From: Patescibacteria group bacterium
Lineage (GTDB): Bacteria > Patescibacteriota > Minisyncoccia > UBA6257 > 02-FULL-45-10c
DNA: 46,835 bases
Assembly: GCA_028865335.1 (NCBI GenBank)
Contig: JAGWKK010000001.1
Location: 1-46,835, forward strand
Reading direction: 5' to 3'
Every line of letters begins with the position of its first letter. Position 1 is the first letter of the stretch. The notes under the pieces are model-generated. The model ran no database searches and was not told the origin of the DNA. It saw only the letters and a list, made by a program, of their open reading frames with translations. Shown here in pieces: positions 3,453 to 36,340 of the stretch. The position numbers were made by a program, and so were the translations under genes.

Positions 3453-4466
3453 TTATGCGATGCAATACTGCTGGCCCAATTCTTTTATTATACCTTTAAT
3501 GCTCAGCAAGGCGAGCGCCTGGTTGACTTCCGTGATGTCCTTGCCGGTTTTTTCAGCGATGGCATCGGCGGTGGCGGATCCTCCGGCATCGCGGATGGCG
3601 ATGACGATGTCGCGCTCGTCTCCCGTGACCAGATCTTCCGGAGATGCGCCCTGATGTTCCGTCAGGCCGTAGTGTTCCAGGATGTCTTCCGGTTCGGTGA
3701 CCAGCATCGCGCCGCTTTTGATGAGCGCATGGGATCCTTTGTAATTCGTGAGCTGGGTACTTCCCGGGATGACGAAGATGTCGCGGTTCTGTTCCAGGGC
3801 GAAGCGCGCGGTGGCGAGAGAGCCGGACCGCTCGGGCGCTTCGATGATCAGCGCTCCGGTCGAGAGTCCGCTGATGATGCGGTTGCGGACCAGGAAGTTG
3901 GACGGATTGTATCCGTGGCCGAATGCGAATTCGGAAACAATCGCTCCGCCGCTCTTAAGGATTTCGTCCGCAAGCCGGACATGGGCGCGGGGATAGATAT
4001 AGTCGAGCGGCGTGCCGAGGATGGCGATGGTCTTGCCGCCGACATCCAGTGCACCGCGGTGCGCTTCGGCATCGACACCGAGCGCGAGTCCGCTGATGAT
4101 CGGCACGCCGGCTCCGGCGAGCGCCGTTGCGAATGATTTCGCGAGTGTTTTGCCATGCGGAGTCGCCGCGCGGGTTCCTACGACCGCGATGGCGGGCTGA
4201 GCATAGGCGATATCGCCAAGGACATAGAGGCCGTGGGGCGGAAAGGGGATTTCCCGCAGAAGCGCGGGATATTCCGGATCATCTTTCAGGATGAGCCGGA
4301 CGCCCAGCTTGGCGACAGGCGCGAATGACTGCTCTGGATCGGGCGCATCCTTGGTGGCCGCCCACGATTCCTTCCAGGATCTGTGTTTTTCAAAAAGCTT
4401 CGCGAGCTTGCCGTGGTTTCCCTTCAGCCCGATCGCGAGCGCATTATAATAGAAAGCTTCATGCAT
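3453..4466 (-). CDS. dprA: DNA-processing protein DprA (natural transformation)
   Basis: 337 aa. Rossmann-like DprA core with GLALGVDAEAHRGAL and IVSEFAFG motifs, plus a C-terminal winged-helix-like tail. Confidence 0.9.
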   Translation of the reverse strand: MHEAFYYNALAIGLKGNHGKLAKLFEKHRSWKESWAATKDAPDPEQSFAPVAKLGVRLILKDDPEYPALLREIPFPPHGLYVLGDIAYAQPAIAVVGTRAATPHGKTLAKSFATALAGAGVPIISGLALGVDAEAHRGALDVGGKTIAILGTPLDYIYPRAHVRLADEILKSGGAIVSEFAFGHGYNPSNFLVRNRIISGLSTGALIIEAPERSGSLATARFALEQNRDIFVIPGSTQLTNYKGSHALIKSGAMLVTEPEDILEHYGLTEHQGASPEDLVTGDERDIVIAIRDAGGSATADAIAEKTGKDITEVNQALALLSIKGIIKELGQQYCIA

Positions 4467-5317: not shown

Positions 5318-5437
5318 GGGTGACTAGTTCCCGCCTGTGGCGAGGCTCGCCCATAGGGCGGCAGTGGTAGAACGCTGTCCTGATAAGACAGACCTGCCTG
5401 CCGGCAGGCAGGGGTCATAGGTTCGATCCTATTCCAT
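5318..5437 (+). pseudogene. decayed copy of tRNA-Ile(GAT) carrying two insertions
   Basis: gggtgactagtt...cagtggtagaacgctgtcctgataagacaga matches the intact tRNA at 5502, apart from a 32-nt hairpin insert (5330-5362) in the D stem and the 20-nt palindrome (5393-5412) after the anticodon stem. The T arm (ataggttcgatcctat) has a 1-nt shorter loop. The 3' acceptor strand is missing (ccatttt does not pair with gggtgac). Confidence 0.65.
5393..5412. repeat. 20-nt perfect palindrome CCTGCCTGCCGGCAGGCAGG, copy 1
   Basis: Exact self-complementary 20-mer. The corresponding position in intact tRNA-Ile (between 5544 and 5545) lacks it. Confidence 0.9.
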
Positions 5438-5501
5438 TTTTACGACAACGCGTCTAGAGTTAATATCAGGGTAGGGGTCGAGGTTCGATTCCTTTTAAAT
5501 C

Positions 5502-5573
5502 GGGTGACTAGTTCAGTGGTAGAACGCTGTCCTGATAAGACAGAGGTCGCAGGTTCGATTCCTGCGTCACCCA
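5502..5573 (+). tRNA. tRNA-Ile (anticodon GAT)
   Basis: Manual cloverleaf: acceptor gggtgac/gtcaccc, D stem gttc/gaac, anticodon stem ctgtc/gacag with loop ctGATaa, T arm gcagg-ttcgatt-cctgc, discriminator A. CCA is not encoded. Confidence 0.9.
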
Positions 5574-5580
5574 CAAATAT

Positions 5581-5610: not shown

Positions 5611-5761
5611 TTTTGCGCAGGAATCGAACCAGCCGCACCCCATATCAGGAAGGAATGGGAAACCGCAGGTGTCCCAGAAGGGGGTCGGGGTGCGGCGTGG
5701 TTCGAGTGAGCGAGCGGGCTATCCAGCCGCGAGTGAAACTTTCATTCCTGCGTCACCCACA
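5611..5761 (+). repeat. structured module bounded by inverted and direct copies of the tRNA-Ile 3' end
   Basis: 5615-5630 gcgcaggaatcgaacc is the reverse complement of the tRNA T arm (15/16 match). 5744-5761 attcctgcgtcacccaca repeats tRNA positions 5558-5575 exactly (18 nt). Inside, cgaaccagccgcacccc pairs with ggggtgcggcgtggttcg. A gggaaacc...gtccc hairpin is homologous to the module at 33436-33572. Confidence 0.7.
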
Positions 5762-5772
5762 GAAATGACGAT

Positions 5773-6464: not shown

Positions 6465-6565
6465 GCGCGTTTAGCCCCTGCCTTCGGTAGACAGGCCTGC
6501 CTGCCGGCAGGCAGGTCAGTAGGTAGAGCGGTCGCCGACGGCGACAGGTCGGAGAAAGGTTCTTT
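6465..6565 (+). pseudogene. decayed copy of tRNA-Val(GAC) with 40 nt of palindromic units in the D arm
   Basis: gcgcgtttagc + [6476-6515 insert] + tcagtaggtagagcg parallels gcgcccttagctcagtggtagagcg of the intact tRNA at 6584. An anticodon-like gtcg-ccGACgg-cgac follows. The T arm is degenerate and there is no 3' acceptor strand. Confidence 0.55.
6476..6515. repeat. tandem pair of palindromic units: degenerate unit (6476-6495) then perfect unit (6496-6515), copy 2
   Basis: 6496-6515 is exactly cctgcctgccggcaggcagg. 6476-6495 ccctgccttcggtagacagg resembles the variant at 11431. Confidence 0.85.
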
Positions 6566-6583
6566 TTATAGATAATAATGTTT

Positions 6584-6658
6584 GCGCCCTTAGCTCAGTG
6601 GTAGAGCGTTTCATTGACATTGAAAAGGTCGGAAGTTCGATCCTTCCAGGGCGCACCA
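6584..6658 (+). tRNA. tRNA-Val (anticodon GAC), CCA encoded
   Basis: Acceptor gcgccct/agggcgc, D stem gctc/gagc, anticodon stem tttca/tgaaa with loop ttGACat, T arm ggaag-ttcgatc-cttcc, then ACCA. Confidence 0.9.
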
Positions 6659-7652: not shown

Positions 7653-8004
7653 CCCGACCCTGCGCCAGTTTCTGAAGAACCGTATCTTATGGAAGGTCTA
7701 TACGATGTGGTTTTTGCGCCGCATCGTTCCGTTGATCGTCCTGCAGGTCGCGGCGATCGCGCTGGCCTTGCAGATTTTCGCGAAGAACGTGTTTGTGAGC
7801 ATGGTATTCAGGAACGCCGCCGTCGCTTCGGAACAGGGATACTGGGCGTTTCTCGGATATCTCTGGTACGCCTTTTTGAATACCCGTCCGCTCGTGCAGG
7901 TTACTGTCCTGGTGATCCTGGGCGTCGTGGCGTTGCTGATCCGGGACGTTGTCCGCATGGTCATGACGTATGCCACTCTGAAGGTCCGGGGTGACCGGGG
8001 GTAG
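7636..8004 (+). CDS. multi-pass membrane protein, possible anti-sigma partner
   Basis: 122 aa. It overlaps the sigma gene by 17 nt (translational coupling) and has hydrophobic helices. The anti-sigma role is inferred only from position. Confidence 0.5.
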   Translation: METPTNPTLRQFLKNRILWKVYTMWFLRRIVPLIVLQVAAIALALQIFAKNVFVSMVFRNAAVASEQGYWAFLGYLWYAFLNTRPLVQVTVLVILGVVALLIRDVVRMVMTYATLKVRGDRG

Positions 8005-8025
8005 GGTAACTGGCCTGCGGCCAAA

Positions 8026-8047
8026 TTCCTAATTACTAATAACTAAT
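8026..8047. repeat. degenerate heptamer array ttcctaa-ttactaa-taactaa
   Basis: 7-nt periodicity directly after the 7636..8004 stop. It is related to the tcctaat array at 31054-31090. Confidence 0.5.
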
Positions 8048-8056
8048 GTCGGGTGG

Positions 8057-8075
8057 CTAGTGACGGGGTGAAACC
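8057..8075 (+). repeat. repeat motif ctagtgacggggtgaaacc, copy a
   Basis: Identical 19-mer at 8222-8240. Reverse-complement copy at 20733-20751 with one mismatch. Confidence 0.8.
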
Positions 8076-8200
8076 CCGCACTGAGCCGAGCGCTTCGTTT
8101 TTCACACCGCTTCAGAAAAGCCCCGCGTTAGTGCCAGGCTGTTGCTTCTGCAAATCAAGCTGATAGGAGAAGAAAAACGGCAATGCGGTGCGGCGCTCGA

Positions 8201-8220
8201 CCTGCCTGCCGGCAGGCAGG
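8201..8220. repeat. 20-nt perfect palindrome, copy 3 (24-nt palindrome with flanks, 8199-8222)
   Basis: cggcgctcga|cctgcctgccggcaggcagg|tctagtgac. The paralogous sequence at 20733-20762 (reverse complement cggcgctcga|tctggtgac) lacks exactly these 20 nt. Confidence 0.9.
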
Positions 8221-8221
8221 T

Positions 8222-8240
8222 CTAGTGACGGGGTGAAACC
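8222..8240 (+). repeat. repeat motif ctagtgacggggtgaaacc, copy b
   Basis: See 8057-8075. Confidence 0.8.
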
Positions 8241-8379
8241 TTTCTGCTTAGTATCCAGTTACACTTAATAGATCCAGCGATTTTAGAGTAGACTGTCGGT
8301 GCTTCGACCGGTATCGACTACCTCATAGATACTCTAAAGTTTCCAGATCTCTATTTTACAGTTAGTTCATATCTTTCTT

Positions 8380-8401
8380 AAAAGCCCCGTCGGGGGCTTT
8401 T
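8380..8401. terminator. bidirectional rho-independent terminator, serves the minus-strand DUF4012 gene
   Basis: aaaagcccc-gtcg-ggggctttt. Confidence 0.75.
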
Positions 8402-8407
8402 AAGTAT

Positions 8408-10477
8408 CTATTGTTTCACGAGAGTGGCGGTGACGGTTTCACGGGCGGCGAGCTGTTCGGTGTCGTAGGTAAAAGTTGGCGACCCCGACTCTTTCCATTG
8501 GTACCCCGGCGGTGCGATGAGGGTATATTCCAGCGATCCGTCCACGCCGGATTGTTTTTCGAATACGAAGGTGTAGGTCATGCCGTCATGGATCGGAAGC
8601 GGGTTGCCGCTTTGGTATTGCACGGTGAGCGTCCGGGTCTTTTGCGGATCGGTAGTCAGCCACGCGCCGAATGATATCTTGTTCCATTCGGATCCGACGA
8701 GCGTCTGCATCGGCCGGTTAAGCGTTTCGGACGATTCGATGCGCGCGAGGTCGGGATCGATACTCAATTCCGGTGCCGGCGGAACCGGCGTGCGCGCCGC
8801 ATCATTGCCGGTCAGCGCCAGAAGCTTTGAGCCGGGCGGCGTGAGTATCGTTATGAAATCCTTGTTCGGAACCAGGTAATACCAGTCGGTCTGATTCGTG
8901 TCCTGGAAGTCGCGGGTGACCGCGAGCTGGTCGATGACATTGCCGTCCGCGTCGATCGTGCTGGTGAGCGCGACGTGCTGGTTGATCAGTGCGTCGGTTT
9001 TTCCGCCGGCAACATTGGCGTTCACGACGGCCAGGTAATCTCCGGTGAAGTCGTCGGGCAGTGCGTAGACGCTACCGGCCACATCGGCGGTATTGAGGAA
9101 TTCCTGCAGACGACTATCGCTCGCATAGGCCATGATGTCTTTGGTTTTCACGTGATCAGCGAGCGTTGCGACGAGCTGCGATTTTTGATCCGCGGTGAGC
9201 GTGTGGAGTTTCTGCATCAGAAGCGGCATCAGGACGGAAAGGATCTTTTTCGGATTCTGTCCCGGTTTCTTGTCGGGACCCAGCTCCACTTCGTGCTGGA
9301 GTTCGGGCAGGAAATTCTGTTCGGTGATGGTCAGGTTGTAATCGGGAAGATCGATCGGTCCGGTGATGCCGAGAATGGATTGGAGGACGTTGGTGTTGAT
9401 GCCGACGACGGCGCTGAAGAATATATGCGTCGGCTGATAGAGATTGGAGTCCTGGAGCAGGGACGCCACCTTTTTCGCCGAGGTCGGGAAATCGAAGAAC
9501 CAGTTCGCGTCGCGGGCGCCCCAGGTCGGCGTGATACCGCTGAGCTGTTCCGGCGGAGCGATCTTGAGATCGAGCTGACGGTCGGCGTTATAGATGTCAT
9601 CGACATTGATGGCGGTGATGTTGCCCTGATTGAGCACGACGTCGCCGTAACTTCCCAGGAATCCGCCCGCCGGGCGGATCTCGGTCGGGTTCTGGAAGAG
9701 GACGAGGATGTGCTGGTCGCCGGGGGCGGTCAGGAGCGTCCGGAGTCCGGCGATGCCCGAGCTTGCGGCGGCGAAATCAGGTTCGATGCGATTGTATTCC
9801 TGCGAGACGAGCTTTGCGGCGGATGCGAGCGGGCCGTTGCTCAATGCGATTCCTGATGCCTCGGCCGCGAGGTTGTCGGCGATCAGCTTCGCCGAAGAGA
9901 CGTTGTTGTCGATGCGCGTCACGGCTGCGACCAGTTCGTCGCCATGGCCCGAGGTCGCAAGTCCGAGCGCGTTGTTTTTAAGGAAATCCACATCTTTTGA
10001 AATGTCAGCTGCTTTCTGGTTGAGCGCTGCGCCCTGCGCGACTGCGTCGGGAAGCATGCCGGCGCCCGGAATGAAGGCGTTTGCGATGCCGGTCAGCAGG
10101 GATATGCCGGGTGCGTGCGCTTGCCGGTCCAGCGCGGTGAAGTCGGCGGAGAGTGATTGGAGCTCGGTACTGAGGTTGCCGGTATTCAGGGTCGTCGCCG
10201 CGGTTTTGAGTCCCGGCAGCTGTGCCTTGATGCGGGCGATGATAGCCAGGGCATTATGGGCGAAAAAGAAAAGCGAAAAGAAAATGAAAGAAACGCCTGC
10301 CGCGATGCCGATGGTGACCGGTTGGATGCGGGTCGGGGTATTCGGTTTCCGGTGAAGTACGCGCTCATGCTCCCGGGCCGCTTCCGCGCGCTTGAGTTCG
10401 GGCGCATAGCGCTTGCGGGGGAGCGGCTTGTGCACGTCGCGCATGGTTTTTCGGGGCTGGGGTGTCGGCTGATGCAT
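8408..10477 (-). CDS. DUF4012 domain-containing membrane-anchored protein
   Basis: 689 aa with an N-terminal TM helix. The motif FQNPTEIRPAGGFLGSYGDVVLNQGNI is, from memory, characteristic of the DUF4012 family that is common in CPR genomes. Confidence 0.75.
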   Translation of the reverse strand: MHQPTPQPRKTMRDVHKPLPRKRYAPELKRAEAAREHERVLHRKPNTPTRIQPVTIGIAAGVSFIFFSLFFFAHNALAIIARIKAQLPGLKTAATTLNTGNLSTELQSLSADFTALDRQAHAPGISLLTGIANAFIPGAGMLPDAVAQGAALNQKAADISKDVDFLKNNALGLATSGHGDELVAAVTRIDNNVSSAKLIADNLAAEASGIALSNGPLASAAKLVSQEYNRIEPDFAAASSGIAGLRTLLTAPGDQHILVLFQNPTEIRPAGGFLGSYGDVVLNQGNITAINVDDIYNADRQLDLKIAPPEQLSGITPTWGARDANWFFDFPTSAKKVASLLQDSNLYQPTHIFFSAVVGINTNVLQSILGITGPIDLPDYNLTITEQNFLPELQHEVELGPDKKPGQNPKKILSVLMPLLMQKLHTLTADQKSQLVATLADHVKTKDIMAYASDSRLQEFLNTADVAGSVYALPDDFTGDYLAVVNANVAGGKTDALINQHVALTSTIDADGNVIDQLAVTRDFQDTNQTDWYYLVPNKDFITILTPPGSKLLALTGNDAARTPVPPAPELSIDPDLARIESSETLNRPMQTLVGSEWNKISFGAWLTTDPQKTRTLTVQYQSGNPLPIHDGMTYTFVFEKQSGVDGSLEYTLIAPPGYQWKESGSPTFTYDTEQLAARETVTATLVKQ

Positions 10478-11884: not shown

Positions 11885-11974
11885 CGCATCGCATACAGCA
11901 AGAAGTGAACAGCTCCCTCGGGAGCTGTTTACTTTTCATGATTCTTTGGTCTACAATAGTGAAAGCAGTATTTG

Positions 11975-12035
11975 CAATGCGCAGGTGGCGAAACTGGCAG
12001 ACCTGCCTGCCGGCAGGCAGGCGCACTACCTGAGG
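11975..12035 (+). pseudogene. duplicated 5' half of tRNA-Leu (through the anticodon loop), interrupted by the 20-nt palindrome
   Basis: caatgcgcaggtggcgaaactggcaga[20-nt palindrome]cgcactacc-tgagg, compared with caatgcgcaggtggcgaaactggcagacgcactaccttgagg at 12289-12330. There is no 3' half. Confidence 0.8.
12002..12021. repeat. 20-nt perfect palindrome, copy 4
   Basis: Exact cctgcctgccggcaggcagg. The intact tRNA-Leu lacks it between 12315 and 12316. Confidence 0.9.
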
Positions 12036-12046
12036 CGACAGAATAT

Positions 12047-12328
12047 ATGTATTCTGATTACGTTCTCAAAAGTATCAAGCGCTCTTATTTGTATGTCGGA
12101 ATGACGAATAATATTAATCGTCGTTTTTTTCAACACCAGTATGGCCGCGAAAAAACTACCGCGCCCTATCGACCATTTAAACTGCTCATTGTTGAAAAAT
12201 ATGATACGCGTAAATCGGCACGAGTTCGTGAAAAGTATCTAAAATCAGGAGTTGGCAAAGAGTGGATAAAGAGGTATGATTTTGAGCACAATGCGCAGGT
12301 GGCGAAACTGGCAGACGCACTACCTTGA
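12047..12328 (+). CDS. small stand-alone GIY-YIG (URI-domain) nuclease family protein, 93 aa
   Basis: MYSDYVLKSIKRSYLYVGMTNNINRRFFQHQYG...PFKLLIVEKYDTRKSARVREKYLKSGVG fits the GIY..YIG..R..H..G...E pattern. The start was trimmed to the first ATG after the tRNA fragment. The last 12 codons and the stop lie inside the tRNA-Leu gene. The gene looks AT-richer than its neighbours by eye. Confidence 0.75.
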   Translation: MYSDYVLKSIKRSYLYVGMTNNINRRFFQHQYGREKTTAPYRPFKLLIVEKYDTRKSARVREKYLKSGVGKEWIKRYDFEHNAQVAKLADALP

Positions 12329-12376
12329 GGTGGTAGCGCCCGCAAGGGCTTGGAGGTTCGAATCCTCTCCTGCGCA
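12293..12376 (+). tRNA. tRNA-Leu (anticodon GAG), type II with a long variable arm
   Basis: Acceptor gcgcagg/cctgcgc, anticodon stem ctacc/ggtag with loop ttGAGgt, variable arm cgcccgcaagggct, T arm ggagg-ttcgaat-cctct, discriminator A. Confidence 0.9.
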
Positions 12377-12466
12377 CAAAGTATAAATGACCGAAGTCCG
12401 TCCGGTTGTGCAATTCATGGGCTTTATCAGAAACGAGCAGGAAAAAGGCTGATTGGGTCGCATGTT

Positions 12467-33435: not shown

Positions 33436-33572
33436 TGTCCGCGATGGGATTTGAACAGAAGGGGAAGGGGTCGGGAAACGGGAGTTTCCCGTGTCGGAAG
33501 GATTGGGAAAACCGAGCCTGCCTACCGACAGGCAGGGGTTTCCCAGTGTTCTTACTCCCATCTACCGCGCAC
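33436..33572 (+). repeat. structured module bounded by inverted and direct copies of the tRNA-Asp 3' end
   Basis: 33441-33456 gcgatgggatttgaac contains the reverse complement of 14 nt of the T arm. 33556-33571 tcccatctaccgcgca repeats tRNA positions 33383-33398 exactly (16 nt). The interior has gggaaac-ggga-gtttccc and gggaaaacc...ggtttccc hairpins homologous to 5611-5761. The second hairpin's loop carries a palindromic unit. Confidence 0.7.
33517..33536. repeat. palindromic unit variant cctgcctaccgacaggcagg (18/20 match to the perfect unit)
   Basis: Located in the loop between gggaaaaccgag and ggtttccc. Confidence 0.7.
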
Positions 33573-36038: not shown

Positions 36039-36340
36039 TCCCACACATAACTTACACTGCTTTCCATTATGTTCCACGTATATTTATTACAATCTTTGAA
36101 GAACAAATCCTTATATGTAGGCTATACTTCCGACTCGGAAAGACGCCTTAAGGAACATAATGGAAACGAGTCCGGCTATACGAAGAAATATAGCCCGTGG
36201 GAATTGGTATATTGTGAAGGATATAAATCGGAAAAAGATGCTCGGGGTCGCGAGCAGAAATTAAAACTGCACGCACAGGGATTGCGAAGGTTGAAAGAAA
36301 GACTTCGCGAGAGCCTTACGGTGTAAGTTATGTGTGGGAT
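36038..36340 (+). mobile_element. 303-bp cassette: GIY-YIG ORF enclosed by perfect 20-bp terminal inverted repeats
   Basis: 36038-36057 atcccacacataacttacac is the exact reverse complement of 36321-36340 gtgtaagttatgtgtgggat. The left repeat starts at the last base of the pheS stop codon. The right repeat ends at the second base of ATG 36339 of the next ORF, overlapping that start codon by 2 nt. Confidence 0.6.
36069..36326 (+). CDS. small stand-alone GIY-YIG nuclease family protein, 85 aa
   Basis: MFHVYLLQSLKNKSLYVGYTSDSERRLKEHNGNESGYTKKYSPWELVYCEGYKSEKDARGREQKLK fits the GIY-YIG/URI pattern. AT-richer than pheS and pheT by eye. Confidence 0.75.
   Translation: MFHVYLLQSLKNKSLYVGYTSDSERRLKEHNGNESGYTKKYSPWELVYCEGYKSEKDARGREQKLKLHAQGLRRLKERLRESLTV

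Follow-up and report, generated by a model that had tools for sequence, protein, structure and literature searches.

The window analyzed in this study is a stretch of 46,835 nucleotides (nt), positions 1 to 46,835 of contig JAGWKK010000001.1 in the assembly GCA_028865335.1 of a Patescibacteria group bacterium, read on the forward strand. The locus in question lies between rplS and a downstream gene for a ComF-like phosphoribosyltransferase. There, an open reading frame (ORF) of 93 amino acids (aa) with a GIY-YIG nuclease domain is placed between a partial tRNA-Leu copy, which is split by a 20-nt palindrome, and an intact tRNA-Leu(GAG) gene. It is the sole ORF between the two tRNA sequences with a protein-family match, and no integrase gene was found near the locus or between the repeats among the ORFs and family matches of the window.

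The tRNA-Leu(GAG) locus and its nuclease gene

From upstream to downstream, the locus comprises the following features.

11901–11936, + strand: intrinsic terminator hairpin of rplS (terminator scan; inverted repeat 11903–11934), the upstream boundary of the locus
11928–11957, + strand: promoter-like site TTTACT, 18-nt spacer, TACAAT (score 9/12), 5' of both the partial copy and the nuclease ORF
11975–12001, + strand: left arm of the partial tRNA-Leu copy (4-nt flank caat plus tRNA positions 1–23), identical to 12289–12315
12002–12021, no strand: perfect 20-nt palindrome CCTGCCTGCCGGCAGGCAGG between tRNA positions 23 and 24, at the end of the D-loop
12022–12035, + strand: right arm of the partial tRNA-Leu copy (CGCACTACC-TGAGG), positions 24–38 minus one T
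12047–12328, + strand: GIY-YIG nuclease ORF, 93 aa, with the predicted catalytic core at about residues 1–77 (12047–12277)
12252–12280, + strand: promoter-like site TTGGCA, 17-nt spacer, TATGAT (10/12, the best score of the region), inside the 3' end of the ORF
12289–12330, + strand: downstream copy of the direct repeat (caat plus tRNA positions 1–38)
12293–12376, + strand: intact class II tRNA-Leu(GAG) with no encoded CCA (ARAGORN 12293–12377; Rfam RF00005 12293–12376)

The two tRNA-Leu sequences form a direct repeat of a length far beyond chance. Positions 11975–12002 and 12289–12316 agree in 28/28 nt (caat plus tRNA positions 1–24) at a distance of 314 bp, and the match then continues past the palindrome, in line with an earlier sequence-only reading of the window that had described a repeat of about 40 nt from 4 nt before tRNA +1 through the anticodon loop. 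That reading had also assigned to the upstream copy a palindrome, a 1-nt deletion, and no 3' half, all of which are present in the sequence. The copy ends in the anticodon loop, and the palindrome sits in it as a clean insertion, without target duplication or deletion, 26 nt 5' of the nuclease ATG. The downstream copy, as had been proposed, lies within an intact tRNA-Leu(GAG), on which ARAGORN and Rfam agree (RF00005, 49.4 bits; cutoff 29). The acceptor stem of this tRNA has the pair G3-C70, compensated relative to C3-G70 in the orthologues of two close relatives (L082 and L084). Rfam found the tRNA alone at the locus and nothing at the palindrome site near 8.2 kb, and a group I intron or riboswitch reading was rejected on this basis.

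The intact tRNA also supplies the end of the nuclease ORF. Codon 83 begins exactly at tRNA +1, and 11 sense codons (AQVAKLADALP) and the TGA stop are tRNA sequence, with the TGA consisting of U33 and the first two anticodon bases. The overlap with the tRNA had been recognized before and stands; the count of 12 codons before the stop does not. The ORF is AT-richer than its surroundings, as had been judged by eye, with a GC content of 0.38 compared to 0.555 for the window, which is below the 1st percentile of same-size windows.

The site at 11928–11957 is presumed to be the original tRNA-Leu promoter. The window carries CTACAAT (the -10 hexamer TACAAT ends at 11957) at the position equivalent to TTTACAAT of L082 and L084, and from position and sequence we infer that this site is orthologous to the TTTACAAT promoter of these relatives. 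The site at 12252–12280, which stops 12 nt before tRNA +1, may possibly act, on weak evidence, as a second promoter for tRNA-Leu. The TGAGG of the right arm, 11 nt before the ATG, could serve as a weak ribosome-binding site.

The protein is predicted to be a single-domain GIY-YIG nuclease of the Slx1/UPF0213 type. It matched the Pfam GIY-YIG family PF01541 over residues 5–70 (E = 4.5e-14, 52.9 bits; cutoff 22.6), and Y5, Y14, Y16, G18, R26, H30, and E62 were invariant in 32 family members; by analogy, the conserved residues (the Tyr motifs, the Arg, and a metal-binding Glu) would be catalytic. The AlphaFold model (mean pLDDT 94.7) consists of a three-stranded sheet and helices, i.e., the alpha/beta GIY-YIG fold. 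Foldseek matched the model to Slx1 chains with a probability of 1.0 and a query TM-score of ~0.6, and also to the GIY-YIG domains of UPF0213, I-TevI, and UvrC. The nearest solved relatives by sequence were the UPF0213 structures 1ywl and 1zg2 (E ~3e-6), and the match to I-TevI was weaker. Neither Pfam nor the model gave a second domain or a DNA-binding domain; the family core spans ~77 aa, and the tail of the window protein is encoded by the tRNA. The only NCBIfam match was a sub-threshold one to an intron endonuclease (TIGR01453, 15 bits against a cutoff of 56), and neither PHROGs nor a tblastn search of plasmids gave a match.

The ORF is under purifying selection as a protein and is conserved across relatives. 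The dN/dS values between relatives were mostly 0.1–0.25, and a premature stop occurred in 1 of 81 ORFs (L071). Nucleotide identity of the ORF reached 77% between a Paceibacterota metagenome-assembled genome (MAG; L032) and a Flavobacterium (L067), and this identity across phyla, together with the foreign composition of the gene, indicates horizontal spread.

The nuclease locus is a derived insertion that is absent from close relatives. The closest relatives by RplS (81–84% identical) have syntenic contigs with a DUF4012 gene, rplS, a ComF-like gene, and pilM. L082 and L084 carry rplS, a terminator hairpin equivalent to that of the window, the TTTACAAT promoter, and tRNA-Leu(GAG), without the nuclease gene, the partial copy, or the palindrome, and zero palindromes occur in the ~5 kb examined in each of them. 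The comparison of tRNA-Leu(GAG) loci with and without the insert thus gives two empty sites and one occupied site, and the locus is an insertion because L082 and L084 carry the empty site. The sequence-only reading had placed this insertion in the anticodon loop. The insertion itself is confirmed; the loop is no fixed insertion point, since the inner end of the partial copy ranges from about position 24 to 71 across loci and mirror-image layouts exist. In another syntenic relative (L081), the rplS-proximal site (2930–2975) holds only an anticodon-arm fragment of tRNA-Leu(GAG), and the intact tRNA-Leu(GAG) lies ~870 nt further (3697–3779), past a 218-aa ORF. This layout indicates that the locus has been rearranged in other ways too.

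Recurrence of the tRNA-Leu association and the palindrome

The association with tRNA-Leu extends across the protein family. A protein search returned 318 clusters of relatives, mostly of 77–84 aa and covering ~81% of the query (all but the tRNA-encoded tail). With one genome scanned per species, 532 sites were confirmed to encode a family member, and the best 80 of them were used for locus analysis. A tRNA-Leu is directly adjacent on the same strand in 72 of these 80 loci by automatic classing, and the other 8 fit on inspection. In every locus, the ORF has the same strand as the tRNA and is flanked by an intact tRNA-Leu on one side and an incomplete or spare copy on the other. The anticodons CAA, TAG, GAG, CAG, and TAA all occur among the adjacent tRNA-Leu genes. 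The suggestion of the sequence-only reading to look for other GIY-YIG genes abutting tRNA halves has thereby led to a family-wide pattern. The hosts are labeled as Patescibacteria (several classes), Bacteroidota, Ignavibacteria, Omnitrophota, Nitrospiraceae, Planctomycetales, and "Gammaproteobacteria," and the Bacteroidota carriers include the isolates Flavobacterium orientale CGMCC 1.12506 (L043) and Daejeonella sp. H1SJ63 (L073). The association is also visible in gene calls, where N-terminal extensions of the type ..ELVD-LPAGRQA.. are the translated tRNA D-arm and palindrome and C-terminal extensions of the type ..AQVAKLADA.. or ..ARVAELVDA.. are the translated 5' half of tRNA-Leu.

The loci were classed by layout as follows.

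Configuration A, as in the window (54 loci): palindrome-split 5' partial copy, ORF, and intact tRNA starting -43 to +23 of the stop codon
Configuration B, the mirror image (18 loci, mostly Bacteroidota): intact tRNA and terminator, ORF, palindrome-split 3' partial or near-full copy, and duplicated terminator
Configuration A without a 5' copy (L002, L004, L005, L011): near-complete second tRNA-Leu downstream of the intact one
Initially unclassified (8 loci): tandem units or nested palindromes on the same theme

The near-complete downstream copies hold one to four palindromes, and L017 has one such copy in addition to its 5' copy. The ORF runs into the tRNA as in the window in 12 configuration A loci, and GAG tRNAs often give the same TGA stop.

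In configuration A, the duplicated part is mostly tRNA sequence rather than flank. In most of these loci, the duplication starts at tRNA +1, with 0–2 nt shared upstream, and long upstream sharing was seen in three cases, at scaffold gaps, contig ends, or tandem units. Such a start fits recombination via tRNA homology, and it fits a cassette that travels with tRNA-derived arms. A flank duplication by staggered cutting was rejected in view of the same 0–2 nt. The spacer between palindrome and ATG usually matches the local isoacceptor (exceptions: L018, L022, and L010), as do both sides of the partial copy in most cases. An imported foreign tRNA half was rejected for this reason, and the earlier proposal that the incoming element had brought a replacement 5' half is not supported.

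Tandem arrays of a tRNA piece and the nuclease ORF occur in L043, L045, L062, L065, and L071, including the isolate Flavobacterium orientale, and the array of L071 contains a nuclease pseudogene. The repeats of such arrays probably break assemblies, and some arrays coincide with scaffold gaps. The tandem units, together with the terminator duplication of configuration B, indicate that local duplication also occurs.

The 20-nt palindrome is a near-universal component of these loci. The sequence-only reading had described it as an insertion in a dead copy; it is no incidental lesion there, as the same 20-mer is seen in several phyla and in other tRNAs. In most of the 80 loci, the palindrome CCTGCCTGCCGGCAGGCAGG lies no more than ~100 nt from the ORF, and the spare tRNA copy almost always carries it as a clean insertion. 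In these copies, the tRNA sequence breaks off after position n and picks up again at n+1 on the other side of the palindrome, with nothing duplicated or lost. The recurrent sites are 15/16 (D-loop), 22–23/24 (end of the D-loop, including the window), 39/40 (3' end of the anticodon loop), and 69/70 (T-loop). A few other insertion points in tRNA copies lie at stem-loop borders, so that all of them map to loops or such borders. Several spare copies hold 2–4 palindromes. The protein is too short for its tree to tell shared descent from independent hits at the recurrent sites, and the Chitinophagaceae 69/70 group is the sole clear single lineage in that tree.

The palindrome is dispersed in the window as well. 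Four exact matches lie in the 46.8 kb, compared to 0.12 expected for the 15-nt core of the palindrome, and a degenerate copy is also present. Besides the copy at the nuclease locus, these are as follows.

5393–5412, no strand: second exact palindrome, in the variable loop of a pseudo-tRNA-Ile (5318–5436) upstream of the real tRNA-Ile (5502–5574)
6496–6515, no strand: third exact palindrome, within a pseudo-tRNA-Val fragment (D-loop region) 5' of tRNA-Val (6584–6658)
8201–8220, no strand: fourth exact palindrome, intergenic, abutting the direct repeat CTAGTGACGGGGTGAAACC (8058–8076 and 8222–8240)
33517–33536, no strand: degenerate palindrome CCTGCCTACCGACAGGCAGG, among 3'-end fragments of tRNA-Asp

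The palindrome-split pseudo-tRNAs indicate that spare fragments of this kind form even where no nuclease gene separates the copies. In the pseudo-tRNA-Val fragment (6465–6560), the exact palindrome stands beside a degenerate copy, CCTGCCTTCGGTAGACAGG, which suggests repeated insertion at one spot. The pseudo-tRNA-Ile region (5318–5501) has an additional 31-nt imperfect hairpin insert in the D-loop (5331–5361), and a T-arm-like fragment follows the pseudo-tRNA. The intergenic region around the fourth palindrome (8004–8408, ~400 nt), with the 19-nt direct repeat abutting it, gave no match to a known RNA family in Rfam and contains no long ORF.

An exact-match scan of metagenomes found the palindrome on at least 120 contigs from many independent projects. 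A member of the nuclease family was present on 9 of the 120 listed palindrome contigs, in several cases beside tRNA-Asn, tRNA-Ser, tRNA-Lys, or tRNA-Arg in a layout like that of the window.

The center of the palindrome also serves as an insertion site and is a hot spot. Palindromes nested in the center of another copy were seen in L039 and L061 (upstream of 3001), and inserts of ~19 nt (GGTTTACC..CCG.AGG..) occur exactly at the center in L053 (1571–1721) and L022 (upstream of 3001). Comparison of L020 with L051 reveals a deletion that ends exactly at the center.

Viral contigs rarely carry the gene (2 contigs) or the palindrome (35 contigs), and phages were rejected as the main home of the system. 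Two GC-rich, viral-labeled contigs (L209, 8560–8680; L232, 2230–2400) contain a full tRNA-fMet-like copy with the palindrome in its variable loop, and in L232 an intact tRNA-Met lies 46 nt downstream of this copy.

A possible selfish cassette and its alternatives

The Ssn family (CDD cd10448), with SsnA of Neisseria meningitidis, is by analogy the known system nearest to the one described here; it consists of ~94-aa single-domain GIY-YIG nucleases acting on single-stranded DNA (ssDNA) (Chenal et al. 2025, PMC11893778). Ssn enzymes bind a hairpin repeat (NTS/SRM) in ssDNA and cut beside it; the repeat lies on either side of the gene and is scattered through the genome, with copies numbering in the hundreds (PMC11893778). 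The authors noted a resemblance to insertion sequences and REP/RAYT and a distribution across phyla (PMC11893778), and for SsnA of Neisseria, restriction or modulation of incoming ssDNA has been proposed. Their paper (PMC11893778) mentions neither tRNA nor Patescibacteria nor Bacteroidota. As in the Ssn family, the protein described here is a single GIY-YIG domain of fewer than 100 aa (93 aa in the window, 77–84 aa in relatives) with no DNA-binding domain, and its gene is accompanied by a hairpin-forming repeat that is also dispersed in the genome. Unlike the Ssn repeats, the repeat is a perfect 20-nt palindrome, with no asymmetric sequence conserved beside it, and it lies inside the spare copy of a tRNA whose partial duplication holds the gene. 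Among the papers searched, none gives the 20-mer or connects a GIY-YIG gene with a partial tRNA gene. The element is widespread and, in its tRNA-embedded form, apparently undescribed.

Our favored reading, to which we give an even chance, is that the locus is a ~310-bp selfish cassette at the 5' side of the rplS-linked tRNA-Leu(GAG). Its parts would be the single-domain GIY-YIG nuclease gene, a partial tandem duplicate of the tRNA, and the 20-bp palindrome in the spare copy. The tRNA gene would serve the cassette as landing pad, promoter, and source of homology, and the partial duplication would keep one working tRNA. Judging by its position, the nuclease gene may be expressed from the tRNA promoter within the tRNA-Leu leader; if the ORF and the tRNA are co-transcribed, an RNase P cut at 12292/12293 would remove the stop codon of the ORF. 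The palindrome would be the cognate site of the nuclease, by analogy with SsnA, and the tRNA sequence on both sides of the cassette would provide homology for entering the tRNA-Leu of new hosts with no dedicated recombinase. Breaks at the palindrome may drive the nested insertions, the deletions ending at its center, and the tandem units, and the nuclease may spread the palindrome in trans. The palindromes would persist in the spare copy because insertions into the working tRNA would be lethal.

A bolder version of this proposal, which we regard as possible and rather doubtful, makes the palindrome itself the mobile unit. It would rank among the smallest known mobile units of DNA, and a GIY-YIG nuclease of ~78 aa acting on single-stranded or hairpin DNA would move it in trans; the nuclease gene would cross phyla inside duplicated tRNA genes that supply a promoter, homology arms, and a harmless sink for palindromes. 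REP/RAYT and IS200/IS605 elements offer a parallel, with one small nuclease gene, short scattered palindromic repeats, and no target-site duplication, and a single-stranded hairpin is the likely shared substrate. These systems rely on HUH/Y1 transposases, which act through a covalent intermediate, whereas the enzyme here is predicted to be a GIY-YIG hydrolase; its repeat measures just 20 nt, and its gene lies in a tRNA duplication.

Several observations weigh against the cassette as proposed. The pairing of protein and palindrome is drawn from their co-location and the analogy with SsnA. The published SRM pattern HGTCWY...RNCYNB was not found within ~500–650 nt of either GIY-YIG gene of the window (the second gene is described below), and the whole window has 1 match compared to 0.3 expected. 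A hydrolytic nuclease alone cannot insert a 20-mer, and host functions must be invoked. Most of the palindromes on the at least 120 metagenomic contigs are intergenic and far from a tRNA or nuclease gene. Their sites are not enriched in hairpin loops (16.5% of 121 metagenomic sites versus 14.6% of 1200 controls; Fisher p = 0.59), and general targeting of hairpin loops was rejected accordingly. The base preference at these sites is weak (T depleted at -1, A at +1), with no further motif and no target duplication. The absence of loop enrichment and the weak base preference leave the choice of target unexplained. Additionally, the duplication in configuration B takes in the flank with the downstream terminator, which recombination with a foreign donor through homology arms does not predict. 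The promoter at the 3' end of the ORF is not family-wide, as the mean score of 7.3 resembles that of controls (6.9–7.0); a conserved tRNA promoter at this place was rejected despite the 10/12 score in the window.

A domesticated host nuclease is a live alternative and is compatible with the selfish reading, and we consider it unlikely. The protein would restrict or modulate incoming ssDNA that carries the palindrome, the tRNA promoter would be borrowed, and the duplicates would be by-products of recombination. SsnA with its NTS repeats sets a precedent, and the strong purifying selection, the constant orientation of the ORF with the tRNA, and the dispersal of the palindrome in the genome would all be expected of such a role. 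However, the gene is absent at the same locus in the closest relatives, its composition is foreign to the host, and its nucleotide similarity across phyla indicates transfer. The amplification of units in tandem and their decay (L043, L045, L062, and L065) are also at odds with domestication.

A classical free-standing homing endonuclease, close to the strategy that the sequence-only reading had envisaged, is a poor fit and in our judgment improbable. Such an enzyme would cut the uninterrupted tRNA-Leu, and repair of the break would copy the gene together with a replacement tRNA half. The GIY-YIG homing genes, i.e., I-TevI and the Seg genes of phage T4, resemble the gene described here in being small, AT-rich, patchy in distribution, and located beside a highly conserved gene, and phage T4 provides a precedent with SegB, a homing enzyme of the GIY-YIG type active in a cluster of tRNA genes. 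Homing would also account for the presence or absence of the gene at the same site in close relatives, the strict tie of the family to tRNA-Leu as a highly conserved target, the compact ORF that is scattered across phyla, and a duplication mostly confined to tRNA sequence. However, I-TevI and Seg enzymes need a linker or DNA-binding domain for target recognition, whereas this protein is the catalytic domain alone, with a fold nearer to Slx1 and UPF0213 than to I-TevI. The occupied allele retains a fully intact tRNA-Leu, in which any tRNA-borne target is kept, and would probably not be immune. Unlike at homing genes, there is no intron, the target is partially duplicated, and a palindrome is present. 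Homing gives the conserved palindrome no role, and it leaves the palindrome-split spare copies of tRNA-Ile and tRNA-Val, which have no nuclease gene, unexplained.

The comparison with Slx1 and UPF0213 (YhbQ-like) proteins concerns the enzyme itself. They give the best sequence and fold matches and have the catalytic residues in common with the window protein. Slx1 requires Slx4 and carries a RING domain, and no UPF0213 protein is known to be associated with a tRNA gene or with a palindrome of its own.

A remnant of an integrase-mediated island or prophage, with an att-type direct repeat in a tRNA gene, is very improbable. Integration often takes place at tRNA genes and results in partial duplicates of the tRNA. 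The locus shares with tRNA-targeting integrative elements the tRNA landing site, the partial tRNA repeats flanking the insert, and the preserved intact tRNA. In contrast to such elements, the repeats, 314 bp apart, enclose just the 93-aa ORF, there is no integrase gene nearby, and the duplicated part is 5', 3', or the whole tRNA; in the window it is the 5' part and not the usual 3' part. The same minimal unit is found in 80 species. An artefact of MAG assembly or library construction, such as a chimeric repeat or an adapter-like palindrome, has next to no probability. The window is a MAG contig and scaffold gaps lie at repeats in L002, L016, and L065, but the same architecture recurs in many independent projects and in the isolates L043 and L073, the palindrome is flanked by exactly contiguous tRNA sequence, and degenerate and nested copies show evolutionary divergence.

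Small GIY-YIG nucleases of the Ssn type have been characterized only recently. If the locus is indeed a selfish cassette, these enzymes would belong to a minimal selfish element in many environmental and uncultivated bacteria, and partial duplication without an integrase would be a new mode of tRNA-gene occupation. In Patescibacteria and Bacteroidota, the cassette would account for many tRNA fragments and spurious extensions of ORFs, with LPAGRQA as a translated palindrome and AQVAKLADA as a translated tRNA half serving as examples for annotation. The element would also be a marker of horizontal transfer between Patescibacteria and Bacteroidota. Ssn enzymes are under development as tools for ssDNA, and the cassette would offer a testable pair of an enzyme of fewer than 100 aa and a defined 20-nt site.

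Other small elements in the window

A second GIY-YIG ORF (36069–36326, 85 aa, GC 0.42) lies directly after pheS and shares 39% identity with the first. A perfect 18-bp inverted repeat, CCCACACATAACTTACAC (36040–36057 and 36321–36338), unique to this place in the window, encloses the ORF, whose stop codon falls within the right arm of the repeat. The segment 36040–36338 looks like another minimal nuclease cassette with a different repeat.

Another type of element, ~125–130 nt long and without an Rfam match, follows tRNA-Ile (5614–5766) and tRNA-Asp (33437–33571) in the window and the tRNA-Leu of a relative (L084, 2986–3190). It starts with an inverted copy of the tRNA T-arm, continues with a conserved G-rich core, and closes with the 3' end of the tRNA duplicated in direct orientation.

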